From: a virus
Lineage: Duplodnaviria > Caudoviricetes
Reading direction: 5' to 3' (one strand)
Length of the DNA stretch: 64,000 nucleotides
Virus record (IMG/VR): IMGVR_UViG_3300005686_000008
Position 1 is the first letter of the stretch; the number at the start of each line of letters is the position of its first letter. The notes under the pieces are model-generated. The model was not told the DNA's origin. It saw only the letters and a program-made list of their open reading frames with translations, and ran no database searches. The translations under genes were made by a program, and so were the position numbers. Shown here piece after piece: positions 1,175 to 37,660 of the stretch.

Positions 1175-3066
1175 GTGATAATCCTAAAATTCTCATAGAT
1201 AAGATGCTAAAGCAAGCTGATATGCCAGCAATGCCTGGCTCTATCAATGTTAAAAATAGGGGTTTGGATTTTCATGTGTTTGACAGAAATAGGTTTAAGC
1301 AAAAGATATCAAAACTTCCGGATGTTGTGAAAGAAAGTATACAAAGACAGATTGCTGACTTTGATAGGGCGTTTAAGAAGTTTCCTGCTGCAAGAAGTCA
1401 AGATTATTCTGGTATGCTTAGAATAGCATATGCGGAAGATAGATTGATTGGAGAAAAGGAGCTTGGAGATCTTTCTAGAGAACAACCCGACCTAGTTAAT
1501 ACAGCAAACTTCGTAAGAGAATATGGAATACAACTTCCGTCCGATTCTGCTGGTTTTTCTGCGGGAGCTAAGGTTGATAAGGGTATAGGTTCTAATTATT
1601 GGTTTTCTATTTTTGGTTATGCATATCAAGATCTTGCAAGTCAAGGCCTTGAGTATCATGTTGCTCAAAAGAGAAATTCAATCCCAAGACATATACAAGA
1701 AAATGTTACTGGTAAGGAAAGACCAAATTCTGCGAATGGAACATTCCAAGTCGTTCCTGCTGGTAATGGATTTACTTTTGGCATTGTTAATGAAAATGGA
1801 GTTACTAATATATTTGATCCAGCGGTGTCTTCGAATACAGTTATTATGAGGAAGTTCTTTAACGACCCAATTATAATGAACAGAAGCGCTGTTTATGTTT
1901 CTCCTATAGATGGCTTTGTTCCTGATGAACAAGCGGTCCAGTTTCAGTTCAATCCTGAATCTACATTTATCAAATATGTCAATAATGCTGATGCCATGAT
2001 TAGGAATAACGAACAGCAAGCGAAGTTTATTTGGGGTATTTTTTCAGATCCAAATAACGGAGCATTTTATATACAGAAGAAGCAGAGATACGGAGCAGGA
2101 GGAAGACCTGTAATAGATAAAGAGACAGGACAGAAGGTTGAAAGAGTTATTGGAGATAAAATTGTTCTTAACTTTGAACAGGTTTCTTCTTTGGCAAATA
2201 AAGATACTATAGGTAGAGTTTATAGTGTTACCGCTCAGTCTGAGGGAGAGATTTTTGATAAGTCGGAGGTTGCGAGCGGATATAAATATGCATATGCTAT
2301 TGAAGATGAAAATACTCTTCAAAAAATTATGAATCCAAGAAATAGAGAAGAGTTTACTTATTCTGTTCCTGCTCTAAGGCAACTTAAGAAATGGATTGAT
2401 GATAGATCAAGCCGTTATTCTTTTGACGAAGATGGAAATGCTATTCAGTCATCATCGGGTTCTCATACAGCTTTAGAGGGTTTTGTTATTTATATGGCTG
2501 GTCCTGATTTTAGTATTGGATACAATCCTGACCAAGCAACTGCTTTGGGTAAGCCAGATATGACTCAGTATAAAGATCTTCCTGGTGGAGAAGTTGAAGA
2601 TTCTACGGGTTCTTTTCTTCATGTAAATAGAATGTCTTTCGTTGTTGTTGCTAAACAAATATCTATACCAAGAATGATGGCTAGCGAAAGATATTATGAA
2701 AACAAGTTTGGTCAAAAGAAAGTTATACTTTCTCCTTGGAGAGAAGTAAGAACAGGACTTCCTTCTTTGTCTGCTGCTGTGGCTGAAATGAAGAAAATTA
2801 TAGTAGGACAGGGAGGAAAAATTGTAGAGGATGATGAAGGGAATATAATTGAGAAAGATCCTTTGCCGAATCTTAGTCCAGATGCTAGGGGAGTTCAGAG
2901 GGCTGATAAAGTATTTGATCAATTTGTTGGAAGAGAACCGATACAACCTATTAAGAAGCAACCTCTTATGCGTCCCCCAGTTGAAGATGTAGGCCCAGAC
3001 CACCCGGACGCCCAAGCCTCTAATCTAGCTAAGAAGATAATCAGGAGTTTCAATAACAATGTTTGA
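1171..3066 (+). CDS. hypothetical protein, probably virion/head-associated
   Basis: 631-aa ORF coupled to both neighbours; N-terminal MLKQAD motif; no recognisable family. Confidence 0.65.
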   Translation: MSDNPKILIDKMLKQADMPAMPGSINVKNRGLDFHVFDRNRFKQKISKLPDVVKESIQRQIADFDRAFKKFPAARSQDYSGMLRIAYAEDRLIGEKELGDLSREQPDLVNTANFVREYGIQLPSDSAGFSAGAKVDKGIGSNYWFSIFGYAYQDLASQGLEYHVAQKRNSIPRHIQENVTGKERPNSANGTFQVVPAGNGFTFGIVNENGVTNIFDPAVSSNTVIMRKFFNDPIIMNRSAVYVSPIDGFVPDEQAVQFQFNPESTFIKYVNNADAMIRNNEQQAKFIWGIFSDPNNGAFYIQKKQRYGAGGRPVIDKETGQKVERVIGDKIVLNFEQVSSLANKDTIGRVYSVTAQSEGEIFDKSEVASGYKYAYAIEDENTLQKIMNPRNREEFTYSVPALRQLKKWIDDRSSRYSFDEDGNAIQSSSGSHTALEGFVIYMAGPDFSIGYNPDQATALGKPDMTQYKDLPGGEVEDSTGSFLHVNRMSFVVVAKQISIPRMMASERYYENKFGQKKVILSPWREVRTGLPSLSAAVAEMKKIIVGQGGKIVEDDEGNIIEKDPLPNLSPDARGVQRADKVFDQFVGREPIQPIKKQPLMRPPVEDVGPDHPDAQASNLAKKIIRSFNNNV

Positions 3067-6000
3067 AAAAAGAGCAAAAACATCGACTCAAATGGCTGTT
3101 GAAGCCCTGCATGTCCCGAAAGGCGGGGCATGGGACTTTTATAATACTTCTCGAATTAAGGTCGCTTCTATAGATAAAACTAAGCAATCAGATCTTGGAG
3201 GATTTGACCTTAAGGCCGCAATAGAGAAAAACCCAGACAATCTATTTGTTAAGGTTTTTGCTATTAAAGCAAATGAAGTGAATGATAACGGAGATTGTTT
3301 TTCTACTGAAGAACTTAAGAAGGCTGCTCACACCTTCGTTGGCGTTCCTGTTTTTGTAAACCATCAAAATGATAATGTAGAGAATGCTAGAGGTAAGGTT
3401 GTTCATTCTTGGTGGGATGAATCTTCAAACGGGATTTACTGTATCAATATGGTTGATAGAGCAGCCTACCCACGACTTGCAAGAGGCATCGAAGAAGGCT
3501 ATATAACAGGAACTTCGATGGGCGCTCAGGTTTCTTATTCTATATGTTCAATTTGCCATAATAAGGCGCATACCGCAGATGAGTTCTGCTCCCATGTTAA
3601 GGGAGGTAAAAACAGAAAACTTAGCGGTAAGCATGAATGTAAGTATCATGATAGTCCATGTAAACCGCAAGATCCATGTCCTCTTGACGGGAAAAAGGTG
3701 GGCGAGGCAAAAGAGATTTTGCACAAAGAATCAAAAGTCTATGAATGGAACTATGACATAAAATTCATAGAAGATAGCTTTGTGGTCAATCCTGCATGCC
3801 ATGATTGTTTAGTATGCGATATATTGAACCTAGATGTCCTAAAAACTACGGTATCTTCTAAGATTGAAGAACTTAAAAAGGTTGCTTCTGTTCTTAGCGA
3901 TTCTGTTAGCAAAATGACGGAAGGTTCAATGGAAAAAACTGCTGGGAAGACAGAGCTTCAGGCTTTGACTCAGGCTATGAATCTTATGGAGCATGTTGCT
4001 CGCTCTATGATGGCTCAGAAACAGCAAATACAACTTGATTATGTTAGCGATCTTGTTGAGCAACTAGCTAAGGTTCAGTCTCTAACGGATGAATTAACAG
4101 AGATGGGTTATGCTCAACTTCCATCTCCGCCAGAGCAGTCTATTGCTCTTGGTAATGTTATGTCTTTGGACCCTCAATCTGCTTCTCAGCAAGTAATGAA
4201 TCCTGGCATGGTTGGACAGCAATCTCAGCAGCCTCAAATGCCAGCACAAAGTTTAACACAACCAAGCGGAACTCCTCAATCTGGTTCTCTTGATGGTATA
4301 GGAAGTGTAACTAGACCATCATTTTCGGGAGCTTCTCAAGAAATTAAAGAGGAATTTTTAAAGCAATCTGCGTATATTAGCGATAAGCTAGAAAATGTTA
4401 GTTCTGCATTGCGCGCCTCGATGGTTTTGCTAGCACAAAGGAGTACGGAAGTGGCAAATTCTGAACACGTTGCAGAGTTTACTAATGATGGATATAAGAT
4501 TACCATTGCTAATGTAGAAGGCAATGGTATTGTTGTTGGTAAATGGAAGGATAGCAAACTCGTAAGTTGGGCTTCCGTAGATGAATTCGGCGATGAAATT
4601 AAGTCGCTTGTATCTTCGAATCCGCAAGAGGCCGCAAAACTCATACTTAGTCATTATCAGAAAGAATCAGGAGTCAATATGTCTGCAAACAAAACAACCA
4701 AGGTAGCATCGGGTGATACCGCTCAGCAGGAAGTTATTACACAAGCACAACTTGAAAACGTAAGTTCCGCTATTGGAGCGAGAGAAGGAAAATATCCTGA
4801 AGTTACTACGCAAGCTCAGCTTGACGGTAAGGCTGAACTTAAGCCTTTAAATGACACCACTTCTGATAGCCCACAGGTTCGTAAGGGCGACTATCCAGAG
4901 GTTATAACCCAAGCGCAGCTTGATGAAATTGATAGTGATTCTCATGCTCGTTGGGATAGCTATCCAGAAGTTATAACTCAGGCACAATGGGATGAAATGA
5001 GCCGCAGAGTTTCTTCGTCTCTTGGTTCTGATTACACGGATCAAATTACTCAGGCTCAGTTGCAGTCTTTGCAGAAGTCTCATAAGTGGACTATGCCAGA
5101 GACGATTACTCAAGATCAACTTAATGATCAAAAGAAGGTTTCTCCAGAAGGTAAAGCAGATTCTGTTCGTTGGGCTTCCGCAAAGATGCTTGTTAAGGCA
5201 GCATCTAGCGCAGTTGCTGATGCGATTGCGAACTACGGACTTACCCCAAGCGACATTAACTCTGTAATGAATCAAATCAATGCATCTCCTTACACAGCTA
5301 TTAAGGCTTCGTATCTTGTTCTTATCAATGCATCTCCTAACAAGGTTAAGGCTCGCACAGCTTCTCGTAATCGCAAGAATTATTTTGCGAAGGTTGCAAA
5401 CTCTTCTAATAATGTTAATGCCATTGACGGCTTGCTCTCAGCTATGGGAGATAACATTGGAAACCTTAAGGGCGAAGACTTTGTTGATGCTATCAAGTTT
5501 GTAGTTTCTGATAAGAAGGCATTTGCATCTGCTGAACAAGCAGCTCACATTAAACTTGCCGCTTCTGAAAATACAGAGGAAGTCGTTAGCAAGGAAGAGT
5601 CTTTCCGTCAAGCTTTTGCTGAATTGGATCGTCCAGAAGACGGTCTTTATAAGATTTGCGGAACTCTTACGGAAGACGTAAAAGTAGATCCAGCAAATAA
5701 GAGTGAATTCATGAAAGCCTTGTTTACATTCGCCAAGAGCAATATAGATGTTCCATTTGTTATTGCTAAGGTTGACTTGGACAAGGAAGCTGGCGTATTT
5801 GAGATGACTTGCAAGGAAGAGGGTGTTTGCTCTGATGCAGAGAAGAAAGCCTTTGCTTCTGCAATGAATGCTCAGTTCAAGACTGCAACTCAGAAGCCTC
5901 AGAATGATAAGAAAGAGACTCGCGCTTCTTCGAGAACCGCACTTGTTAAGGAAGCTCAGATGATGGGCGGACAGATGGGCGGCGGAATGGGCGGCGGCGG

Positions 6001-25714: not shown

Positions 25715-28700
25715 ATGCAAAATGTGAAGTATTCGATTGTAATTCCGACCTACAATCATCTTGAAGACTGCCTTAAGCCCTGTATTGAAAGCATTATTAG
25801 GTATACAGACCTCTCAAATGTAGAGGTTATTGTTGTTGCTAATGGTTGTACAGATGGAACGAGGCAGTATGTTGAAAGTCTTGGCGAACATTTTAGACTT
25901 ATTTGGGCCGACGCTCCTCTCGGTTACATAAAACCAACTAATATGGGTATTAGAGAGGCAAAAGGCGAATATGTCGTCCTTTTGAATAATGATGTTATCT
26001 TATGCGAACAGCCTAAGAATCTTTGGTTATTTATGCTGGAAAGCCCGTTTATCAAAGATCCTAAAACGGGAATAACTGGTCCATATAAAGACATTCTTTT
26101 TTATTGGGAAAGCGGTAGGATAAACTTCAGAAATGAGTTTATTGCATTTTTCTGCGCAATGTTCAAAAGATCTATTATCAGTTTGGTGGGTCTTTTAGAT
26201 GAAGATTTTGGCTTAGGATATGAAGAAGATGTAGAGTTTTGCACAAGAATAACCAAGGCTGGATTCAAAGTTGTTGAAGTTCCAGATGACATGCATTATG
26301 ATCTAAATATAACAAGAGAATATCTAGAAGCAAATCCTAATATCAACACAAAGTATCCTCTGATTCATCTTGATAGGATGACCTTTAAGCATATTACTCT
26401 TCCTCGCCAAAGCAGTCCGCTGTTGAAAAAGCATAGGCCTCCAAAGTATTCCATTATAATTCCAACCTACAATCATCTCGAAGATTGCCTCAAGCCTTGC
26501 ATTGAAAGCATTATTAGGTATACAGATCTTTCAGAAGTAGAGGTTATCATCGTTGCCAATGGGTGTACAGATGGTACTGAAGAATATGTAAGGAATCTTG
26601 GATATCCATTTAAGCTATTGCATATTAAAGAGGCTGCTGGATATACAAAATCTACGAATGAGGGCATTAAGGTATCGCAAGGCAAGTACGTTATATTGCT
26701 CAATAATGATAACGTGATTATGGAATCTCCAAAGCATGAATGGATAAAGGCTTTAGAGAGACCGTTTAGAGAGCAAAGTAATGTCGGAATAACTGGCGTT
26801 GCCAAAGATGTTCATTATGGAACAGGTTGCGAGTTCTTGTTGTTTTTCTGTGTAATGATTGATTACAATGTTTTTAGGAAAATCGGGTTCTTGGATGAGG
26901 TATTCAATCCCGGTTATGGAGAGGATATAGATTTTTGTAACAAAGTAAAGAGGAATGGTCTAAAGGTTGTACAGGTTCCCGAAGATTGCACTTTGACCAG
27001 ACCGAGACTTGCTCATGAACATGGTCTTAATTTTCCTATTTGGCATAAAGGAAGCAAAACGGTGTCTACATTCAAGGACTGGGATAAGACTGTTCCTAGA
27101 AATGAAAAGATACTCTTTGAAAGATATGGTAAGGCATCCTATCCAAAGTATTCGATTGTAATTCCAACCTACAATCACTTTCAGGATTGTCTCAAACCTT
27201 GTATTGAAAGCGTTATTAGGCATACGAACCTTTCAAACGTAGAGGTTATCGTTGTTGCTAATGGTTGTACAGATGGAACTAGAGAGTATGTTGAAAGCCT
27301 TGGAAGTCCATTTAGGCTTATTTGGAATGAGGCTCCTCTTGGATATATAAAGCCAACCAATATGGGCATCAGGGAGGCAAAAGGCGAGTATGTTATACTG
27401 TTAAATAATGATACGCAAATAGTTGCGCCAGGATGGATTGAGATTCTCGCTTCTCCTTTTGCATCAGGCAATATTGGTATAACTGGCCCCAGAAAGGCAT
27501 GGAGAGATGATGTAAAGAAAGAGTATATCCTTTTCTTCTGCGCTATGATAAAGAAAGAGGTTTTCAACAAGATAGGTTTATTAGATGAGAGTTTTGGTAT
27601 CGGGTATAATGAGGATACGGATTTCTGCATACGAGCAGTAAAAGCAGGTTATGAACTTGTTGAAGTTCCGTATGATATCAAGTATAGCGATAGCAATAAG
27701 GGAAATGATAGCAGAGAAATGCCATTCCCGATTTGTCATACAGGCGGAAGAACATTTTCGAGCATGTTTGAGAGTTCTGCGGCAGGGGCATCTAAGAATG
27801 TCCATTTATTGTATGCAAAGCATTGTCCAAAGGTTTATGACTGTTTCATGTTTTTCAATGAGCTTGATTTGCTTGAAATAAGACTTAATGAACTTGATGA
27901 GGTTGTGGATAAGTTTGTACTTATTGAAGCAAGATACACTCACCAAGGCAAACCAAAGCCTCTTTATTTTGACGAGAACAAGCAAAGGTTTGCTAAGTTC
28001 TTACACAAGATTGATCATATTGTAGTTGAAGAGTTTCCAGAGGCAAAAAGTAAATGGGACAATGAGATTTTTCAGCGTAATGCAGCGATGAATGTTTTGA
28101 AGGATGCTATTCCTAATGCTGTTGTTATATTGTCAGATGTAGACGAGATACCTAGTAAGTCGGCTATACTTGAGTATTTTTCTTTGACAGGAATTTATAC
28201 GTTAGAGCAGAGGGTTTTCTACTATCATTTGAACTGCGAGATTCCTGATTCTAAATGGACATTGGCTAAGATATGTAGATATTCAGATATTGGCAATAGA
28301 ACGATAAACGATATTAGAACATCTCCTGTTGTTAATGTTTTGAAAAACGCAGGTTGTCATTTTAGTTACATTGGAGGAAGCGAGCAGATAATATCTAAGA
28401 TCAAAGCTTTTTCTCATCTTGAATATAATCAAGAACACATTGTAAACAAGAATGCAATAGAAAGTAGGGTGAGCGAGTGTAAAGATGTTTTTGGTAGAGA
28501 TATTTCTTTCCAGTTGGTTGAAGATCTTTCGTATTTGCCTTCATTTGTTTTGAATAATCTTGATAAGTATAGAAGACTAGGGCTTATTAGAAGCGCAAAA
28601 GAAGACGGAAGGCCAAAGGTTTATGACTGTTTCATGTTCTTCAATGAGATGGATGTTTTGGAAATAAGGCTCAATGAGCTTGACGAGGTTGTTGATAGGT

Positions 28701-31700
28701 TCGTTCTTGTTGAGGCCAAATATACTCATCAAGGCAAGCCAAAGCCTCTTTATTTTGATGAGAACAAGCAAAGATTTGCTAAGTTCTTACACAAGATTGA
28801 TCATATTGTAGTTGAAGAGTTTCCAGAAACGAATGACCCTTGGGTTAGGGAGCCTTTTCAGCGAAATCAGATTATGAGAGGGCTTAAGAACTGTAAACCA
28901 GATGATATCATTATTGTTTCAGATGTAGATGAAATCCCCAAAGCGTCTGTTGTGAAACAATATAGAAAAGAGATGGGCTTAACTTGTATTCAAACAAGGC
29001 TCTTTTATTACAAACTGAACTATTTATGCCCTGTAAAGTGGTTTAAACTAAGGATTTTCCCATTCTCTGAGCTTAGAGGGGGAGAAGTTCAGCAAGTTAG
29101 AGGCTCTAGAGATTATGACTATAAAACCGTTATTGATGACGGAGGTTGGCATTTTAGCTTCTTGGGCGATAGAGAGCATATAAGGCAGAAAATTGAAAGT
29201 TATGGTCACATTGAGTTCAATAACGATCTTATAAAAAGTGACGAGAATATAGATAAGGCGATTAATGAGGGAAGAGATGTTTTCGGTAGGCCTCAGGTTC
29301 AGTTTGAGACTGTTGCTATTGATGATTCTTTCCCGAAATTCGTTATTGACAATTTAGATAAATACAGAAAAGCAGGATTAATAGGCGGAACAAAAATGAA
29401 GACTATGAAAGAAAGAATGCAGGAAGAACATAGTGGAACTTATGATGAAATGTATATGTATGACGTTTATAGTCTAGAAGACAAGGATATTAGAAACAAG
29501 GTTATTGTTGATATTGGTGCTAATTTTGGTTTCTTTTCTTTTAGATGCTTGGAAATGGGAGCTAAAAAGTGTTATTGCTTTGAGCCGCAATCAGATAACT
29601 ATAAAAAGCTAGTTGAACTCATAGATGAATTTGGTTTCAAAGAGAAAATTGATGCGAAGAAGTTGGCCGTTCTTGATGGTAGCGTAAGCGAAGTTGTAAT
29701 GGGAGGGAAAGATGTCTTCAGTAATATTTGGGGACAAGGCGACTCTAATAAGGTAAAATGCATTTCTTTCCAAGAAGCCTTTTCGTATGTAAAAGAGAAT
29801 GAAGATTTGGTTCTAAAGGTTGATTGCGAGGGTTCTGAGTTTGAGATTATCTTCAATTCTCCTCCTGAAATATTAAAGAGATTTTCTTTCATGTATATAG
29901 AAATACATGATGATATGAATCCTAATTATAAGGGAAGAATGGAAGACCTTATAAAGTATATAGAAGATCTTGGCTTTATTCAAGAGAAGCATGGCCCTCA
30001 GTTTGGTATGTTTTGGGCTGATGGGTCGTTTACTCCGTCTCCAATTAAGTGTATACGTTTTAGAAGGAAAGCAGAGGCGTCGTTGCCAGATGGGTGGTTT
30101 GGAGAAGAGGACGTATCCGTATATAAGAGTTTAGTGTCAGCGGTGCCTGAAAATGGGAAGATGGCAGAAATCGGAGTGTGGCAAGGAAGGTCTCTTTGCT
30201 CTGTTGCCAAGATAATCAAAGATAAAAACTTACAAGTCGCAGCTATTGATACGTTCAAGGGAAGCGAAGGAGAAAAAGAACATACATCTTTGGCCGAGAA
30301 GATTAGTATTTTGGATGCGTTTAAGAATAACATACTTAGATTTGGTCTAGAAAAGAACATTTCTATATATAGTATGACTTCTGCTTCTGCTTCCGCCGCA
30401 ATTCCTAATCGTTCATTAGATTTTGTGTTTATAGATGCAAATCATTCGTATGAATATGTTTTGCAAGATATAAAGCTTTGGTTGCCCAAAGTGAAGGATG
30501 GAGGAGTTATTGCTGGACATGATTTCTTGTATAGCGAAGGAGTTAGAACCGCTGTGCATGAAACTTTTGGCAATTCTTTTGATGTTCAATCTAATCTTTG
30601 GTTTACAACAGTAAAGAGATCTTCTGTTACTCCGTCTACTCCAAAGTATTCGATTGTAATTCCGACTTACAATCATCTTGATGATTGCCTCAAGCCTTGC
30701 ATTGAAAGCATTATTAAGCATACAGACCTTTCAAATGTAGAGGTTATTGTTGTTGCTAATGGATGCACAGATGGGACGAGAAGTTATGTTGAAGGCCTTG
30801 GAAGTCCGTTCAAGTTAGTATGGATGGACGAATCTGCTGGATATACTAGAGCCGCAAATGAGGGAATAAAAGCCTCCAAGGGAGAGTTTGTTGTTTTGCT
30901 TAATAATGATGTCATTCTTCTTGACTATCAAAAGAAAAATGAATGGCTAGATTTGATGGCAAGGCCATTTAGTAGTAAAGATAAGGTTGGAGTTACTGGG
31001 CCAAGCAAAAACTATTGCAATTTCTTAGATGCTTTTGATAACAAAGATGGTGAATTTCTTATATTTTTCTGCGTAATGATTCCTAGGAAGTTGTTTGATG
31101 AATTGGGGTTATTAGATGAAAGATTCAATCCTGGAGCCGGAGAAGATTTTGATTTCTGTATCAGAGCGAAAGCCGCAGGCTATTCCCTAGTACAGGTTCC
31201 TGATAATGACCAATATGTTCATTCTGGTCCGGGTGTCGCAACAAGTCCTTACCCTCTATGGCACAAGAACGCCTCCACAAGAGGAGAGGACCACACGAAC
31301 ATAAAAATCAATAATGTAAAGCTTATCAATAAGTATAAGACAAAGAATCTAAAGATAAACTTCATCAATGCTGAACAAAACTTGCCAGGATTCTTTTCTG
31401 CTGATATGGATACTTCAAAAACGCATCTTATGTTAGATGCTAGGAAAATGGATTTAGAAGATAACTCTGTCACAGAGATTGTTCTTCAGAATTTGCTTGA
31501 GAGATTTGGTATTAATGATATAACAAGCGTCATTAAAGAGAGTAATAGAGTTCTAACGGATGGCGGCAAGATAGTTGTTGTTACAGAGGATGGAGCAAAA
31601 GACTTCTTAGTAAGTCAGCTATTGGCTACTGGATTTTCTTCTTTGTTTGCTCAGTATTCAAATGGGAAGCTTCATCTTTCTGCCGTAAAAGAGAAAAGGA

Positions 31701-33199
31701 AGGTATTTGATTGCTTCCCCTTTTTCAATGAACTAGACTTATTGGAGATTAGGCTTAATGAGCTTGACCCATATGTTGATTATTTTGTTTTATCAGAGAT
31801 GACAATAACTCATCAAGGCAAGCCAAAGCCTCTTTATTTCAATGAGAACAAGCAAAGATTTGCTAAGTTCTTACACAAGATAGTCCATGTTATAGTTGAT
31901 GATTGTCCAAGATTTAGCGATCCTTGGTTAAGGGAGCATTATCAGAGGAATGTTTTGGATAGGGGCTTGAAAGATTGTAAGCCCAAAGACATTATTATTT
32001 TGTCTGATATTGACGAGATTCCAAGAGGAGAGAAGATAAAAGAATATGATCCTTCTTTGAGTTTTATGTGTTTTGAGATGAATCAGTATAACTATTACCT
32101 CAATATGAATGTTGGAATTGGAGAGTTGGAAACGGGGGTTTTTGGAAGGATAACAACTCTTGAAAATCTCAGAAAAATGAACGCATGGTTGACTGATTTG
32201 AGATATGCGGAGTGCGGAAAAGACCGACTTATACACAATGGAGGTTGGCACTTTAGTTGGATTGGAGGGGCAAATAGGATAATAGAAAAGCTTGAATCTT
32301 ATGCTCATGAAGAGATAAATCAGGATCAATACAAAAAGATTGAACTCATAAACAAGAATATTTCTGAAAGCACTGATGCATTTGGAAGAGAGAATCCTCC
32401 TCACAAGCCAATGCTTGTTGAGGTTGATAATTCTTTTCCAAAGTTCATCCGAGACAATTATGACGATCTCGTTGGAAAAGGTTTGATCAAGCCAATAGAG
32501 AAGTCATCTAAAGTTGCTATTATAATGCCGTATTACAATGATAGTTCTTTGATGATATCTTCTGTTATGGGAATATTGAATCAAACGTATAGAGACTGGG
32601 TTCTCTTCTTAGTTGATGACGGTTCTTCAGAAAACAATAAGGCGGCAAAGGTTCTTGGTCGTCACTATCCAAGCCGTATAAGGATTATAGAAAAAGAAAA
32701 CGGAGGAGTTAGTTCCGCTAGGAATGCGGCATTAGATCTTGTTAGAAAAGATCCATCGTTTGCTTATATTGCATATTGCGATTCTGACGATGTATGGGAT
32801 GAGGGGTATTTGGAATCTCAGATTGAAGCTATTCAAAATTGCGACCTTGTTTATTGCTATCCAAGACACGAGTTTGACAATGGAGAAAAAGCGTATCCTC
32901 AAGGAATCCCAAATCCGCCAGAGTTTCCGGGTTGGAAGTTCATGCTCAATAATGCCTTTATGTATATATCAGGAGTTGTTCATAAGAGAAACTGTATGGC
33001 TGTAGGAGATTTTGATGGGACTATTAACTCTATAGAGGATTGGGATATGTGGATAAGGATTGCTAAGGCAGAATATTCTATCAAGAAGAACGAAAAAGCA
33101 TCTTTTACCTACATAGTGAAGATCAATGGAAACATGGCTTCTAAAAGAACGCAGGAAATATTAGATAGATTCAAGGCTAAACATGGAGTAATCGCATGA
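25715..33199 (+). CDS. giant multimodular glycosyl/methyltransferase: GT2-GT2-GT2-GT17-GT17-FkbM MTase-Methyltransf_24-GT2-(degenerate MTase)-GT17-GT2
   Basis: Four KYSI.IPTYNH..DCLKPC...LLNND modules (about 25727, 26444, 27146, 30644). Three KV.DCF.FFNE.D.LEIRLNELD...SD.DEIP...G.HFS modules (about 27830, 28616, 31700). Also VDIGANFG...LKVDCEGSE; EIGVWQGRS...FIDANHSY...GGVIAGHD; and a terminal IIMPYYN..LVDDGS..CDSDD..EDWD.W GT2. Confidence 0.92.
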   Translation: MQNVKYSIVIPTYNHLEDCLKPCIESIIRYTDLSNVEVIVVANGCTDGTRQYVESLGEHFRLIWADAPLGYIKPTNMGIREAKGEYVVLLNNDVILCEQPKNLWLFMLESPFIKDPKTGITGPYKDILFYWESGRINFRNEFIAFFCAMFKRSIISLVGLLDEDFGLGYEEDVEFCTRITKAGFKVVEVPDDMHYDLNITREYLEANPNINTKYPLIHLDRMTFKHITLPRQSSPLLKKHRPPKYSIIIPTYNHLEDCLKPCIESIIRYTDLSEVEVIIVANGCTDGTEEYVRNLGYPFKLLHIKEAAGYTKSTNEGIKVSQGKYVILLNNDNVIMESPKHEWIKALERPFREQSNVGITGVAKDVHYGTGCEFLLFFCVMIDYNVFRKIGFLDEVFNPGYGEDIDFCNKVKRNGLKVVQVPEDCTLTRPRLAHEHGLNFPIWHKGSKTVSTFKDWDKTVPRNEKILFERYGKASYPKYSIVIPTYNHFQDCLKPCIESVIRHTNLSNVEVIVVANGCTDGTREYVESLGSPFRLIWNEAPLGYIKPTNMGIREAKGEYVILLNNDTQIVAPGWIEILASPFASGNIGITGPRKAWRDDVKKEYILFFCAMIKKEVFNKIGLLDESFGIGYNEDTDFCIRAVKAGYELVEVPYDIKYSDSNKGNDSREMPFPICHTGGRTFSSMFESSAAGASKNVHLLYAKHCPKVYDCFMFFNELDLLEIRLNELDEVVDKFVLIEARYTHQGKPKPLYFDENKQRFAKFLHKIDHIVVEEFPEAKSKWDNEIFQRNAAMNVLKDAIPNAVVILSDVDEIPSKSAILEYFSLTGIYTLEQRVFYYHLNCEIPDSKWTLAKICRYSDIGNRTINDIRTSPVVNVLKNAGCHFSYIGGSEQIISKIKAFSHLEYNQEHIVNKNAIESRVSECKDVFGRDISFQLVEDLSYLPSFVLNNLDKYRRLGLIRSAKEDGRPKVYDCFMFFNEMDVLEIRLNELDEVVDRFVLVEAKYTHQGKPKPLYFDENKQRFAKFLHKIDHIVVEEFPETNDPWVREPFQRNQIMRGLKNCKPDDIIIVSDVDEIPKASVVKQYRKEMGLTCIQTRLFYYKLNYLCPVKWFKLRIFPFSELRGGEVQQVRGSRDYDYKTVIDDGGWHFSFLGDREHIRQKIESYGHIEFNNDLIKSDENIDKAINEGRDVFGRPQVQFETVAIDDSFPKFVIDNLDKYRKAGLIGGTKMKTMKERMQEEHSGTYDEMYMYDVYSLEDKDIRNKVIVDIGANFGFFSFRCLEMGAKKCYCFEPQSDNYKKLVELIDEFGFKEKIDAKKLAVLDGSVSEVVMGGKDVFSNIWGQGDSNKVKCISFQEAFSYVKENEDLVLKVDCEGSEFEIIFNSPPEILKRFSFMYIEIHDDMNPNYKGRMEDLIKYIEDLGFIQEKHGPQFGMFWADGSFTPSPIKCIRFRRKAEASLPDGWFGEEDVSVYKSLVSAVPENGKMAEIGVWQGRSLCSVAKIIKDKNLQVAAIDTFKGSEGEKEHTSLAEKISILDAFKNNILRFGLEKNISIYSMTSASASAAIPNRSLDFVFIDANHSYEYVLQDIKLWLPKVKDGGVIAGHDFLYSEGVRTAVHETFGNSFDVQSNLWFTTVKRSSVTPSTPKYSIVIPTYNHLDDCLKPCIESIIKHTDLSNVEVIVVANGCTDGTRSYVEGLGSPFKLVWMDESAGYTRAANEGIKASKGEFVVLLNNDVILLDYQKKNEWLDLMARPFSSKDKVGVTGPSKNYCNFLDAFDNKDGEFLIFFCVMIPRKLFDELGLLDERFNPGAGEDFDFCIRAKAAGYSLVQVPDNDQYVHSGPGVATSPYPLWHKNASTRGEDHTNIKINNVKLINKYKTKNLKINFINAEQNLPGFFSADMDTSKTHLMLDARKMDLEDNSVTEIVLQNLLERFGINDITSVIKESNRVLTDGGKIVVVTEDGAKDFLVSQLLATGFSSLFAQYSNGKLHLSAVKEKRKVFDCFPFFNELDLLEIRLNELDPYVDYFVLSEMTITHQGKPKPLYFNENKQRFAKFLHKIVHVIVDDCPRFSDPWLREHYQRNVLDRGLKDCKPKDIIILSDIDEIPRGEKIKEYDPSLSFMCFEMNQYNYYLNMNVGIGELETGVFGRITTLENLRKMNAWLTDLRYAECGKDRLIHNGGWHFSWIGGANRIIEKLESYAHEEINQDQYKKIELINKNISESTDAFGRENPPHKPMLVEVDNSFPKFIRDNYDDLVGKGLIKPIEKSSKVAIIMPYYNDSSLMISSVMGILNQTYRDWVLFLVDDGSSENNKAAKVLGRHYPSRIRIIEKENGGVSSARNAALDLVRKDPSFAYIAYCDSDDVWDEGYLESQIEAIQNCDLVYCYPRHEFDNGEKAYPQGIPNPPEFPGWKFMLNNAFMYISGVVHKRNCMAVGDFDGTINSIEDWDMWIRIAKAEYSIKKNEKASFTYIVKINGNMASKRTQEILDRFKAKHGVIA

Positions 33200-34155
33200 G
33201 TATATTTGTAACTGGTGGTGCAGGTTTTATAGGTTCAAACTTTATAAGATTACTTCTTAACAGCGGTCACAAAGTTACCAATGTTGATAGTCTAACTTAC
33301 GCTGCAAATCCAGAAACAATTAGAGACTTCGAGAAGAATCCTAATTATAGGTTTGTTAATGCTGATATAAGAGATAAGAAGGCTATGTATGATGTTATTG
33401 ATAAGGGTTCTTTTGTTTTCAATTTTGCAGCAGAAAGTCATGTTGATAACTCTATAAGAAACCCTTATATCTTTTTGGAAACCAATGTATTTGGAGTACA
33501 GAATCTACTTGAAGTATGTAAAGATAAAAAGGTAGACCTGTTTGTTCAGATTAGCACTGATGAAGTGTATGGTTCTCTTTCTATGGATCAAAAGTCTTCT
33601 CAAGAGACTGATATTCTTTGTCCGTCTTCTCCATATAGCGCTTCAAAGGCTGCTGCTGAAATGTTGTGTTTTGCTTATATGAGAACGTTTAAGGTTCCGA
33701 TTATTGTAACACGATCTTCTAATAATTTCGGTCCATATCAGTTTCCAGAAAAGATTATACCGTTGTTCATTTCTAACCTTATGAGCGGTAAGAAGGTTCC
33801 GGTATATGGTAATGGAGGTAATATAAGGGATTGGATATTTGTAGAAGACAACTGCGAAGCAATATTGGCTGTTGCCAATAGAGGTGTTACTGGTGAGATT
33901 TATAACATTGGCGGAGGAAATGAAGTCAAAAACATAGATCTAACGAAAATCATACTTGAAAAAATGGGTAAAGATGAATCTAGTATAGAGTTTGTTGAAG
34001 ATAGGCTTGGACATGATCTAAGGTATTCTCTTGATTGTTCTAAAACAATGGATCTTGGATGGAGTCCTAAAAATAGCTTTGAAACGAACATATCTAAAAC
34101 GGTTGATTGGTATTTGAAAAATAGACAATGGTGGGAACCTCTTAGAAAGAAGTAA
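33196..34155 (+). CDS. rmlB: dTDP-glucose 4,6-dehydratase
   Basis: VTGGAGFIGSNF, D.LTYA, FAAESHVD.SI, STDEVYG, PSSPYSASKA, NNFGPYQFPEK, RDWI.VED and DR.GHD.RY. Confidence 0.96.
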   Translation: MSIFVTGGAGFIGSNFIRLLLNSGHKVTNVDSLTYAANPETIRDFEKNPNYRFVNADIRDKKAMYDVIDKGSFVFNFAAESHVDNSIRNPYIFLETNVFGVQNLLEVCKDKKVDLFVQISTDEVYGSLSMDQKSSQETDILCPSSPYSASKAAAEMLCFAYMRTFKVPIIVTRSSNNFGPYQFPEKIIPLFISNLMSGKKVPVYGNGGNIRDWIFVEDNCEAILAVANRGVTGEIYNIGGGNEVKNIDLTKIILEKMGKDESSIEFVEDRLGHDLRYSLDCSKTMDLGWSPKNSFETNISKTVDWYLKNRQWWEPLRKK

Positions 34156-34156
34156 A

Positions 34157-34987
34157 ATGAATAACAATGTTCTTGTAATTGGTAATGGCTATTTGGGGAA
34201 TAAGGTTGCAGAATATTTTGATTGCTACTTATTCGAAGAAAAATTGTGTACGCAGGCTGAGGCTGATTTTTGTATTAAGGTATGGAAGCCTAAGTTTGTA
34301 ATCAACTGCGCTGGTAAAACTGGAAGACCAAATATTGATTGGTGCGAAGTCCATAAAGAAGAGACATTCTTCGGTAATGTTATTCTTCCTACTTATATTC
34401 AATCAGCATGTAATAAATTTGGCGCAAAAATGGTTCATGTCGGTAGCGGATGTATCTATCAGGGAAACTATGATGGAAATGGGTTTACAGAAGATGCTGC
34501 TCCAAATCATGACTCAAGTTACTATAGTTGGACAAAGATAGTTTCAGAAAGATACTTGAATGGTCACGATGTTTTGCAACTTAGAATTAGAATGCCGCTT
34601 AGTTCTGATAGGAGTCCAAGGAATCTTCTTTCAAAGCTTCTTGGATACAGCATGGTTGTAGACGCTCCAAATTCAATAACTTATATTCCTGATCTTTTGG
34701 AGGTTATGAGGTCTCTTATTTCAATGAACGCTTCTGGTATTTACAATGTTGTTAATCCAGACCCGATATTGCATAGTGAAATACTTAAGAAGTATGAACA
34801 GATAAGCGGTAAAACGTTATCTTATAAGACAATAACAGCAGATGATTTGGATTCTATTACTTTGGCAAAAAGGTCTAACTGTGTTCTATCAATAAAGAAA
34901 TTGAATGCTCTTGGTCTACAAATGAGACCGTCAAGTTATGCTGTTGATGATTGTATTAGAAAATATGTTGAAGGAGGCAATGTATGA
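34157..34987 (+). CDS. rmlD: NDP-4-keto-6-deoxyglucose 3,5-epimerase/4-reductase (RmlD-fold, NRS/ER-type)
   Basis: CAGKTGRPNIDWCE.HK.ET...NV, GSGCIY, F.E.D..N...S.YS.TK, LR.RMP......RNL..KL..Y..V...NS.T and RSNC.L. Confidence 0.85.
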   Translation: MNNNVLVIGNGYLGNKVAEYFDCYLFEEKLCTQAEADFCIKVWKPKFVINCAGKTGRPNIDWCEVHKEETFFGNVILPTYIQSACNKFGAKMVHVGSGCIYQGNYDGNGFTEDAAPNHDSSYYSWTKIVSERYLNGHDVLQLRIRMPLSSDRSPRNLLSKLLGYSMVVDAPNSITYIPDLLEVMRSLISMNASGIYNVVNPDPILHSEILKKYEQISGKTLSYKTITADDLDSITLAKRSNCVLSIKKLNALGLQMRPSSYAVDDCIRKYVEGGNV

Positions 34988-35091
34988 AAGGAGTAATTCT
35001 TGCAGGAGGAACTGGGTCTAGACTTTTTCCAATTACGAAGGTTACGAACTGTATTTTATTTATTGTTTTGTCGATAGATATAGTATGCTAA
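34984..35091 (+). pseudogene. rmlA: orphaned original 5' end of rmlA (35-aa stub)
   Basis: ATGA-coupled ORF reading MKGVILAGGTGSRLFPITKVTN, then unrelated CILFIVLSIDIVC*. Not in the supplied ORF track. Confidence 0.85.
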
Positions 35092-35983
35092 AGAAATTAG
35101 ATATATTAGATTCTGAAATAAGAAGATTGTATTTTGTTGAAAAGAAATCTCAAAAAGCCATATCGAAAGAGCTTGGGGTTTCGCAGTGGACTGTTTTTCA
35201 AAGAATGAAAAACTCCAATATGAAAGCATTTCCCAAAGAAAGATTTCTTAGTCATCAGGTTTATTGTATTAAGCAAGATGTTTTAGATTGTATTACTACT
35301 GATGTAGCTTGGATTCTTGGGTGGTTTCTCTCTGATGGTTTTGTATCTAAAGATGCAAATTATTTTGGATGTAAAGTTGCAATAAAAGATCAATCCATAT
35401 TAGAGAAAATTAAAGACTTTTTTGGATATTCTGGTCCAATTCTTGAACAAAACTCTTATCTAAAGAAAACAAAGAAAATCTATAAAAACAAATTGCTTAA
35501 AATGTCTTCTAAAGTATTGCGAAATAAGATTATTGAGCTGGGTATAAAGCCAGCAAAAACTAGCAAAGAAAGATATTTGAAATGTATTAACGGAGAAGAA
35601 TTGGATAGGGCTTTTATTAGAGGAATATTTGAAGGGGATGGCAGTCTTCTTGTTTATCCGCATAGGGAATCTTATTGTTTTCAGATTGTTGGTACAAAAG
35701 AATTGTTGCTTGAAATACAAAAAAGACTGATTGGATATCTTGGAATTCAAAAAACAAAGTTGTATTGTCAAAATGAAAAATCAAATCATTATATGATGAG
35801 ATATACTGGTAAGCATCAGGTTTATAAAATATCTGAATGGATATATCGTGATAATCCAAAAAATAGACTTGAAAGAAAATACTTGAAATATCAAGAAATG
35901 GAGGCAATATGTCAGTGAAGAAGGGTGTTCTATTGGCTGGCGGTACAGGTTCTCGTCTTGGCCCTCTTTGTAAAGTAACGAAT
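35050..35983 (+). mobile_element. free-standing LAGLIDADG homing-endonuclease cassette carrying a replacement rmlA 5' end
   Basis: Homology of the stub to RmlA breaks after codon N22 (35049). A second recoded copy ending ...KVTN (35983) joins KHLLP at 35984. Confidence 0.75.
35085..35918 (+). CDS. LAGLIDADG homing endonuclease with N-terminal HTH
   Basis: LY....KSQ..I.KELGVSQ.TV..R HTH; WILGWFLSDG and FIRGIFEGDGS motifs; C-terminal L.RKY. Confidence 0.9.
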   Translation: MLKKLDILDSEIRRLYFVEKKSQKAISKELGVSQWTVFQRMKNSNMKAFPKERFLSHQVYCIKQDVLDCITTDVAWILGWFLSDGFVSKDANYFGCKVAIKDQSILEKIKDFFGYSGPILEQNSYLKKTKKIYKNKLLKMSSKVLRNKIIELGIKPAKTSKERYLKCINGEELDRAFIRGIFEGDGSLLVYPHRESYCFQIVGTKELLLEIQKRLIGYLGIQKTKLYCQNEKSNHYMMRYTGKHQVYKISEWIYRDNPKNRLERKYLKYQEMEAICQ

Positions 35984-36634
35984 AAACATTTGCTTCCAAT
36001 ATACAATAAGCCAATGATTTTTTATCCATTGCAGACTCTTATTGGAATGGGAATAAAAGATATTCTAATCGTTTCTGGAACTGAACATTGCGGACATATT
36101 TTGCAACTGCTTGGTAGCGGTAAAGACTTTGGAGTAAGCATTTCTTATAAAGTACAAGATGAGGCTGGCGGCATTGCTCAGGCTCTGGGCTTAGCAGAGA
36201 ATTTTGTTGGAGATAATTCCGTTGCCGTTATTCTTGGAGATAATATTTTTGAAGACAAGTTTGATGTACATGATTTCACAACAGGAGCAAGACTTTTTAT
36301 CAAAGAAACAGATGAGCCTCGTAGGTTTGGTGTTCCAACTATTGTTAATGGAAAGATCGTTTGGATTTTGGAAAAGCCAAAAGACCCTCCATCTAATTAT
36401 GCGGTTACTGGTTTGTATGTATATGATAAGGACGTTTTTACTATCATTAGAAAACTGAAGCCTTCATCAAGGGGAGAGCTTGAGATAACTGACGTTAATA
36501 ATGCTTATATCAAAAAGGATGGCGGCGTACATTATAGCGTTGTGAAAGGCGAGTGGACAGATGCTGGAACATTCGAGAGCCTTTTCAAGGCTAACAATAT
36601 AGCAAGGAATATTGTAGTTAAAGCGGAGAAATAA
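35909..36634 (+). CDS. rmlA: glucose-1-phosphate thymidylyltransferase (short form)
   Basis: LAGGTGSRL.PL....NKHLLPIY.KPMI.YPL, Q....GIAQAL, LGDNIF, EKP..P.SNYAVTGLY.YD, PS.RGELEITD.N and W.DAGT.ESL. Confidence 0.95.
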   Translation: MSVKKGVLLAGGTGSRLGPLCKVTNKHLLPIYNKPMIFYPLQTLIGMGIKDILIVSGTEHCGHILQLLGSGKDFGVSISYKVQDEAGGIAQALGLAENFVGDNSVAVILGDNIFEDKFDVHDFTTGARLFIKETDEPRRFGVPTIVNGKIVWILEKPKDPPSNYAVTGLYVYDKDVFTIIRKLKPSSRGELEITDVNNAYIKKDGGVHYSVVKGEWTDAGTFESLFKANNIARNIVVKAEK

Positions 36635-37660
36635 ATGAAAAATGTTGAAGTAACAGCAGAAGTATCAACTAAAGACCGTTACTATACAACTCTTCCGATG
36701 TGTATAGTTGCGATTGCTAATCAAACTCATAAACCTAAGAAGATACTTATATTTGATGATGGAGAACAAAAAGATCTAAGAAATGATCCTACATATGCCA
36801 GTATATTTGGCTTATTGTTTTCTAAGGGAATTGATTTTCAAGTTATTTTTGGTCAAAAGAAGGGACAGGTTGCTAATCACCAAATAGCTATTGGACTGTC
36901 TCAGACTGAATGGATATGGAGAGTAGATGATGATGATGTTCCAGAGCCAAACGTGCTTGAAATTTTGGTCCGTAACATCAAAGATGATGTTGGAGTTATA
37001 AGCGGTCTTGTTTTGATTCCTGGACAGCCAGAGGCGAATCCTGCAAGTACATCTGGCAGAATAGAAGACATTTTTACTAGCGCAAATGTTCAATGGTCAA
37101 GGTTCAAGGGAGTCAAAGAAGTTGACCATATGAACAATACGTTTTTGTTTAGAAAGTCAGCGGCAACTCATGGATATTGTTTGAAACTAAGTCCTGCCGG
37201 ACATAGAGAAGAAACAATGTTCACATACGAGTTCAAGAGGAAGGGATTCAAACTTCTTGTTGATCCAGAAGCTATTATATGGCATATGAGGTCTCCTCAA
37301 GGAGGAATCCGTTCATATACCCAGGAATTTTTCTGGGAACACGACGAAATGATATTCCATAAGTATTTAGAAGATGTTGGAATTTCTGTAGATAGGCCGC
37401 AACTTATTGTTTTAGATAGCGGTCTTGGAGATCATTACGCTTTCAAAATGATTATGCCAGAAATAAAGGCTAAGTACAAGAATCTAACGCTTGCTGTTTG
37501 TTATCCTGAAGTTTTTGAAGATGAAGGCGTAAGACTTATTTCTATAGCGGAAGCTTACTCTATAGGAGTAGATAAAGATAAACACAATGTGTATAAATTC
37601 ATGACAGATCGAGGTTGGACAGAAAGCCTTGTTGAAGCTTATAGGAAAATGTGGTTATGA
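36635..37660 (+). CDS. GT2 glycosyltransferase fused to a GT9-like N-terminal lobe
   Basis: ST.DR.....C...I.NQT.KP..I.IFDDG and WRVDDDD; C-terminal LDSGLGDH..F.M..PEIK.KY. Confidence 0.8.
   Translation: MKNVEVTAEVSTKDRYYTTLPMCIVAIANQTHKPKKILIFDDGEQKDLRNDPTYASIFGLLFSKGIDFQVIFGQKKGQVANHQIAIGLSQTEWIWRVDDDDVPEPNVLEILVRNIKDDVGVISGLVLIPGQPEANPASTSGRIEDIFTSANVQWSRFKGVKEVDHMNNTFLFRKSAATHGYCLKLSPAGHREETMFTYEFKRKGFKLLVDPEAIIWHMRSPQGGIRSYTQEFFWEHDEMIFHKYLEDVGISVDRPQLIVLDSGLGDHYAFKMIMPEIKAKYKNLTLAVCYPEVFEDEGVRLISIAEAYSIGVDKDKHNVYKFMTDRGWTESLVEAYRKMWL

Follow-up and report, generated by a model that had tools for sequence, protein, structure and literature searches.

A free-standing LAGLIDADG homing endonuclease cassette that probably colonises a phage rmlA gene by supplying a substitute 5' end

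To our knowledge, homing endonucleases are thought to persist in essential or otherwise useful genes only inside self-splicing introns or inteins, and to lie between genes elsewhere. In fungal mitochondria, mobile open reading frames (mORFs) create gene hybrids, as in atp6 of Allomyces macrogynus and atp6, atp9, cox2 and nad3 of Glomus (Beaudet et al. 2013, PMC3630166, citing Paquin et al. 1994), and C-terminal duplications of cob and atp6 are flanked by LAGLIDADG or GIY-YIG open reading frames (ORFs; PMC6279837). The native remnant left by the Glomus mORFs is 91-98% identical to close relatives and the inserted copy 64-81% (PMC3630166). T4-type phages carry free-standing seg and mob endonucleases, among them the gene-splitting mobE in nrdA of Aeh1 and mobA in T4 gene 39/60 (PMC2988022). 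Here we describe a locus in a 64,000-nucleotide (nt) stretch of a Caudoviricetes genome (IMG/VR virus record IMGVR_UViG_3300005686_000008; the whole stretch is referred to below as the window) in which a gene for a LAGLIDADG homing endonuclease with a helix-turn-helix (HTH) domain stands between a 5' stub of the sugar-nucleotide gene rmlA and a complete rmlA with a second start. We consider it likely that this is a mobile cassette which colonises rmlA with neither intron nor intein, carrying its own ribosome-binding site (RBS) and a substitute start for the gene.

The fungal mitochondrial mORFs that replace gene 3' ends are the closest known case and the mirror image of this locus; 5'-end replacement in a phage appears to be new. 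As in the fungal elements, an endonuclease ORF and a foreign gene end are joined in phase to the resident gene, the native end is kept as a remnant and splicing is unneeded, and the parallel with duplicated gene ends that a first-pass annotation of this DNA had drawn is borne out by the published cases (PMC3630166, PMC6279837). Remnant identity is 91-98% in Glomus versus 89% here, and that of the inserted copy 64-81% versus 60-63%. Unlike the fungal mORFs, which act at the 3' end and in the mitochondrion, the window cassette replaces the 5' end of a giant phage gene and is not a member of that group; it must bring an RBS and a start codon, and its remnant lies upstream and keeps the old start. 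It differs further in its sugar-nucleotide target, in having a whole endonuclease subfamily dedicated to one site and in having related cassettes on other metagenomic contigs. That such a gene is an unusual target, as first proposed, holds insofar as a literature search found no paper combining "homing endonuclease" with "thymidylyltransferase", but for its own subfamily rmlA is the regular target.

With the T4-type elements the cassette shares a free-standing gene in a phage operon and probably also upstream transcription and overlapping or coupled translation (PMC2988022), and it may be likened to them in spread, which in those elements proceeds by double-strand-break repair with co-conversion of the flanks (PMC2988022). 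T4-type elements lie between genes or divide a gene so that two reassembling polypeptides result, whereas the window cassette replaces a gene start; they are enzymes of the GIY-YIG or HNH type, with cuts that often lie far from their insertion, whereas this one is a LAGLIDADG enzyme whose foreign tract ends at the insertion point. A review of the T4-type elements mentions no duplicated gene end (PMC2988022), and no duplicated 5' gene end from a phage came up in our literature searches. The enzyme resembles I-AniI, I-DmoI, I-Tsp061I, the bI3 maturase and the I-OnuI family in its monomeric double-motif fold and conserved catalytic Asp, and, as with LAGLIDADG endonucleases of introns and inteins, its insertion in a conserved coding block splits the presumed target. 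Unlike those, it has no intron or intein, its harmlessness comes from replacement of the gene start and it carries an extra N-terminal HTH.

The anatomy of the locus (Table 1) agrees with what the first-pass annotation had described. A stub of rmlA, whose ATG shares an ATGA overlap with the stop of an upstream rmlD-like gene, breaks off after 22 codons, a leader with the motif GTCGATA and an HTH-LAGLIDADG gene follow, and a second N-terminus overlapping the end of the endonuclease gene runs through KHLLP into an intact RmlA. The stub frame reads through the leader to a TAA (35089-35091) that overlaps the endonuclease ATG as ATGCTAA, and the replacement rmlA ATG (35909) lies inside the endonuclease 3' end, 4 nt past a GGAGG, and the replacement segment constitutes cassette-supplied substitute first codons of RmlA, 25 in number. 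Because KVTN codons close both the stub and the replacement segment, the placement of the cassette can be slid by up to 12 nt. The RmlA product matches PF00483 (NTP_transferase) at 1.7e-52 over residues 5-231 of 241, and the replacement start retains LAGGTGSRL and NKHLLP; with the N-terminal GGxGxRL motif present, the product is a putative glucose-1-phosphate thymidylyltransferase (RmlA). The insertion point falls between the conserved GGxGxRL block and the conserved NKHLLPIYNKPM block. In a motif scan the stub scored 20, whereas the background of 103,057 windows (three forward frames of all 29 homing endonuclease loci) went no higher than 11 apart from a single outlier at 16, so the stub is not a chance match.

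An allele of rmlA lacking the cassette was found in a close relative. The closest RmlA relative (P0002, 89% amino acid identity) is encoded on a 1005-bp contig, L013, where the 3' end of an rmlD-like gene is coupled to an uninterrupted rmlA that starts MKGVILAGGTGSRLFPITKVTN directly joined to KHLLP. The window aligns to it in two blocks, 34652-35036 at 89.6% (385 nt) and 35971-36535 at 86.0% (565 nt), so that the cassette is polymorphic for presence and absence between collinear flanks that are 86-90% identical. Comparing the 5' end of an uninterrupted rmlA in a related phage had been proposed from the outset, and the outcome supports the proposed reading: the start in L013 corresponds to the stub (56/63 nt and 21/21 amino acids identical) and not to the second copy (40/63 nt). 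In successive 27-nt bins the second copy matches L013 at 16 and 17 positions and then at 24-26 from 35975 onward, the rmlA body as a whole giving 20-26 of 27 nt bar one bin of 17. Identity thus rises from 33/54 to 467/540 nt (61% to 86%; Fisher p = 1.3e-5), and this step, at about 35975, coincides with the break in the stub. The match of the empty allele to the stub, and not to the second copy, therefore argues that the stub is the native rmlA start and that the insert at 35050-35983 brings a foreign one. Positions 1-17 and 989-1005 of L013 are the same 17 nt in inverted orientation, resembling a random-amplification primer, and the contig is a single amplified fragment.

Three more distant phage relatives (L001, L004 and L076) also have an rmlD-like gene directly adjacent to rmlA, with no endonuclease. 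In L004, a 187-kb viral contig, the rmlB-, rmlD- and rmlA-like genes (1857-4719) are each broken into several overlapping frames, either through many frameshift errors or through decay of the sugar operon. A degenerate DNA pattern for further empty alleles of the stub type found none in IMG/VR, a near-identity search of GenBank phage records gave no match, and a protein search with the upstream gene found no relatives on viral contigs.

The two N-termini were first read as near-identical in protein and heavily changed at synonymous positions. This description is accurate, since stub and second copy agree at 17/21 amino acids, at 38/63 nt and in only 3/17 of the codons for shared residues; the further reading of this as recoding is not upheld. 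Across the eight loci with stubs, codons for shared residues are identical in 42/132 cases, and pairs of stub and copy drawn from unrelated loci give 192/689, so that synonymous divergence is at saturation and not beyond it (for the window alone, binomial p = 0.26). Since the divergence reaches saturation only, the replacement start looks like the ordinary product of a distant rmlA, with no sign of directed design or special engineering.

The cassette and its new 5' end for rmlA are not peculiar to this genome, and the layout proposed from the window recurs in 30 related loci, eight of them with intact stubs. The 30 loci, taken in by protein and locus searches at an endonuclease identity of at least 37%, all have the endonuclease at the 5' end of rmlA; in 29 the two genes point the same way, 0-50 nt apart, and in one they are divergent. 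Endonuclease homologues at or below 34% identity never adjoin rmlA. Upstream neighbours vary among rmlD-like, DegT and unknown genes and genes on the opposite strand. Intact stubs precede the endonuclease in the window, L018, L025, L026, L027, L042, L044 and L052 (scores 18-20), and in all eight the stub breaks at codon 19-24. Stub stop and endonuclease ATG overlap in the window and in L018, while L026 and L027 have a separate Shine-Dalgarno sequence for the endonuclease. L042 and L022 carry in-frame fusions of stub and endonuclease, and P0130 begins MALKGVILVGS; the stubs of L022 and P0130 are decayed or fused, and the 150 best representatives of the wider family held no RmlA-stub fusions beyond P0126 and P0130. 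In the divergent locus, L017 (1727-3322), endonuclease and rmlA lie 5' end to 5' end, which may be an inversion.

Two pairs of loci point to a unit whose ends are fixed. L025, a 258-kb viral contig with the same operon, holds a cassette homologous end to end to that of the window: the two have in common a 35-nt leader with a GTCGATA core, endonucleases that are 66% identical, an ...ICQ-stop overlapping ATGTCAGT and a replacement start of the form MSVKKG...PLCKVTN. The stub of L025, MKGIILAGGTGSRLMPLTKVTN, is of the ordinary type, and in both loci the stub differs from the cassette start. Between L026 and L027, 24% of stub bases but only 2/23 stub residues differ, and the leaders share their first 15 nt exactly, a pattern which fits stubs recently derived from working genes. 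Identity of the endonucleases correlates only weakly with that of the RmlA bodies (rho 0.18, a value reached by 211/2000 Mantel permutations), which would fit movement between diverged rmlA genes.

The endonuclease itself appears to be intact. It matches Pfam LAGLIDADG_3 at 9.3e-10, PF14528 matches both halves of the ORF, indicative of two LAGLIDADG motifs in one chain, and a Sigma70_r4-like HTH is found at 2e-4, below the Pfam cut-off of that family. The motifs ...LGWFLSDG... and ...IRGIFEGDG... are conserved in 12 homologues; of the catalytic Asp residues at the motif ends, D185 is invariant and D84 is present in 11/12, the exception being P0129, which has Asn. An AlphaFold model (pLDDT 90.9) has a double alpha-beta-beta-alpha-beta-beta-alpha core joined by a flexible linker to an N-terminal domain of three helices, and its top Foldseek matches are the bI3 maturase, I-AniI, I-Tsp061I and I-DmoI (E 1e-8 to 1e-5, probability 1.00), with the I-OnuI family also matched. 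TM-scores are about 0.4-0.6 (normalised by query or target length), the lower values being explained by the extra HTH domain. Two motifs, conserved Asp residues and a confident model matching monomeric LAGLIDADG endonucleases suggest that the enzyme is active. It belongs to a wider HTH-LAGLIDADG family with 1,932 representatives at E <= 1e-30, and its gene is the sole free-standing LAGLIDADG gene in the record, the other four LAGLIDADG frames being ORFs of 633-1208 amino acids that are probably inteins. In P0129 (L019:2501-3445), SNG replaces SDG and an N-terminal extension resembles a decayed stub; this may be a degenerating copy.

Based on these observations, we propose the following mechanism. 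The endonuclease would cut an endonuclease-free rmlA at or near codon 22/23, within the DNA for the conserved ...KVTN|KHLLP..., and double-strand-break repair would copy the cassette from an invaded genome, in which the rmlA body would act as right homology arm and, probably, the stub of the donor as the left one. The first 22 codons of the recipient would be severed from the gene and remain as a stub, while the cassette start, joined in frame to the native body, would allow full-length RmlA still to be produced. Immunity to re-cutting would come from the splitting of the target by the insertion and from bases changed to the left of the junction (ACG to TGT, AAG to AAA, GTT to GTA and AAC to AAT from stub to replacement), and the 60% nt identity between stub and substitute start may also make loss of the cassette by recombination harder. 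The stub, which retains the old start, would most likely feed ribosomes to the endonuclease by termination-reinitiation, as one step in a putative coupling chain in which ATGA, ATGCTAA and ATG...TGA overlaps link the rmlD-like gene, the stub, the endonuclease and rmlA.

Several points weigh against this reading. The close empty allele is a single contig, L013, at about 1.2x coverage and with amplification-primer sequence at its ends. All 23 contigs of the same phage that were read carry the cassette wherever the upstream DNA is present, with no polymorphism seen within the population. The endonucleases of the window and L025 have diverged (66% amino acid identity) about as far as the flanking genes (58-71%), and this pair may share one old insertion rather than represent two invasions. 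Left of the junction about 6/15 bases distinguish the new allele from the reconstructed empty site, and to the right none do, so that immunity may depend chiefly on the splitting of the site in the stub, and the intact junction might remain cleavable. Finally, the cutting activity, the place of the cut and the immunity of the new allele are all inferred.

A related clade of phage-type RmlA proteins bears on the origin of the substitute start. Its members (P0004-P0011, P0023 and P0025; L076:2001-2714) have a cassette-like start, RLGxLC[KR]VTN, often with a short basic N-terminal extension, and in L076 this GxLC-type start occurs without any endonuclease. The clade could have supplied the cassette start, or it could represent resistant alleles that persisted once the endonuclease was lost; comparison within it gave no direction of transfer by which the donor of the substitute start might be named.

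The endonuclease-free start in L076 also lends itself to the alternative that survives best, although we regard it as unlikely: an ordinary intergenic endonuclease underwent one-sided, partly illegitimate recombination with a diverged donor, leaving an accidental scar in which the stub is a leftover and the substitute start the donor's own, native one. About two-thirds of the related loci lack a stub, and the synonymous divergence is no greater than between unrelated loci, both as expected of such an accident. Stubs nevertheless occur in at least eight loci with the break always at codon 19-24, the foreign tract of the window stops exactly at the stub break with no co-conversion into the body, and the leaders after the break are conserved between cassettes (window and L025, L026 and L027) while the stubs are not. 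Fixed break points and conserved leaders therefore favour precise, homology-guided insertion of a unit with fixed ends.

Considerably less probable is a domesticated, WhiA-like DNA-binding regulator of the rmlA operon, in which case the protein would not be a mobile nuclease and the stub would be an unrelated duplication. The strict linkage to rmlA in 30/30 loci would suit a regulator, as would the HTH joined to a LAGLIDADG core, the presence of WhiA among the fold matches and a weak match to Pfam LAGLIDADG_WhiA. WhiA has, however, lost the catalytic Asp residues at the motif ends, both of which are conserved here. In addition, close relatives differ in whether they have the endonuclease gene, the duplication of the rmlA start lies exactly at its borders, and it occurs in unrelated genomic contexts.

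Splicing of stub and body, as RNA through a group I or II intron or as protein through an intein, with the second N-terminus irrelevant, is scarcely credible: relatives of the endonuclease in Staphylococcus phages are annotated as intron-encoded and the stub breaks exactly where the body resumes, but a Rfam scan of 34700-36300 at E up to 10 returned noise only (best E = 2.7; no group I intron or other family), the 35 non-coding nt between stub and endonuclease ORF and the overlap of the ORF end with the RmlA start leave no room for a ribozyme core, and a complete conserved N-terminus with its own RBS makes splicing unnecessary. An intein was rejected because the stub frame closes with a TAA and does not share the frame of the endonuclease; RmlA also has its own start. 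The initial claim that neither intron nor intein is involved therefore stands.

Table 1. Features of the rmlA locus, with positions in the window.
Feature	Position	Strand or setting	Basis
rmlB-like gene	33196-34155	sugar operon	ORF list and Pfam
rmlD-like reductase gene	34157-34987	+	ORF list; Pfam RmlD_sub_bind and Epimerase
Stub, native rmlA codons 1-22, MKGVILAGGTGSRLFPITKVTN	34984-35049	+	identity to L013 start; motif score 20
Whole stub ORF	34984-35091	+	22 RmlA residues, then 13 unrelated
Entire inserted cassette, 934 nt	35050-35983	+	alignment to empty allele L013
Cassette leader, 35 nt	35050-35084	+	identity to L013 collapses (13/27 and 10/27 nt per bin)
GTCGATA motif	35070-35076	+	in leader
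Free-standing homing endonuclease gene, 277 amino acids, HTH and double LAGLIDADG	35085-35918	+	Pfam, model, Foldseek
Cassette RBS GGAGG (35900-35904) and replacement rmlA 5' end MSVKKGVLLAGGTGSRLGPLCKVTN	35900-35983	+	L013 comparison
Full RmlA ORF, 241 amino acids	35909-36634	+	NTP_transferase 1.7e-52
Native rmlA body, KHLLP onward, in frame with replacement start	35984-36634	+	86% nt identity to L013
GT2 glycosyltransferase gene	36635-37660	directly after rmlA	ORF list, Pfam

The source record is a 370,652-bp virus record with an estimated completeness of 73%, and near-identical contigs of up to 505 kb originate from bioreactor-sludge metagenomes. Among sequencing runs, the stretch was found only in assembled contigs of such metagenomes and as one 176-nt piece in a freshwater run; these, which are silent on expression and on population variants, yielded no joint skipping the cassette and no RNA dataset with the stretch. 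The locus sits within a tightly packed sugar operon in which rmlB-like and rmlD-like genes are followed by the stub, cassette and rmlA and by a GT2 glycosyltransferase gene, and directly upstream of the rml genes lies an ORF of 2494 amino acids (25715-33199) with many glycosyltransferase and methyltransferase modules. The leader motif GTCGATA has six copies in the window, all on the + strand (11264, 11881, 24502, 25682, 35070 and 58608) and mostly no more than 50 nt ahead of a start codon. Throughout the 370-kb record, 13/22 copies on the coding strand fall in the 14% of that strand which is non-coding (p = 1.2e-6), making it a candidate promoter or regulatory motif of the phage. A scan for sigma-70 promoters and terminators showed no enrichment (15 found versus 20.9 expected).

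In two further loci, L053 (3298-3400) and L054 (3302-3450), the rmlA that follows the endonuclease is interrupted right after codon 22 (...VTN, AAC) by an insert containing stops. The L053 insert is 33 nt long with an 11-bp hairpin (minimum free energy -14.9 kcal/mol, z = -3.1) and ends in AAT, after which KHLLP continues in frame; that of L054 is about 63-80 nt with two hairpins. These could be a scar, a mini-intron, a ribosomal bypass like that of gene 60, or a dead gene; for a bypass, the take-off AAC and the landing AAT would both encode Asn.

Extending beyond rmlA, it is possible, though we hold this with rather less than even confidence, that homing endonucleases generally have a third means, after introns and inteins, of occupying protein-coding genes of phages and small-genome prokaryotes, namely replacement of the gene start. 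The stub would then be a working part, serving as left arm, as launch for endonuclease translation and in precise losses that regenerate empty sites, and L053 and L054 would be a further variant needing ribosomal bypass or a mini-intron. The layout at rmlA places the probable site of cleavage and insertion at a single codon and so provides a testable pair of enzyme and target, the L013-type site against the window junction. It would also add naturally diverse monomeric LAGLIDADG enzymes with a conserved presumed target to the set available for engineering. Short orphan ORFs that resemble gene fragments beside endonuclease genes find an explanation here, and in genes with a replaced start the first 20-25 codons may differ in history from the rest. 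Together with its endonuclease subfamily of about 30 members, the locus represents another solution to residence within a useful gene in phages, in which the element brings a spare gene start.

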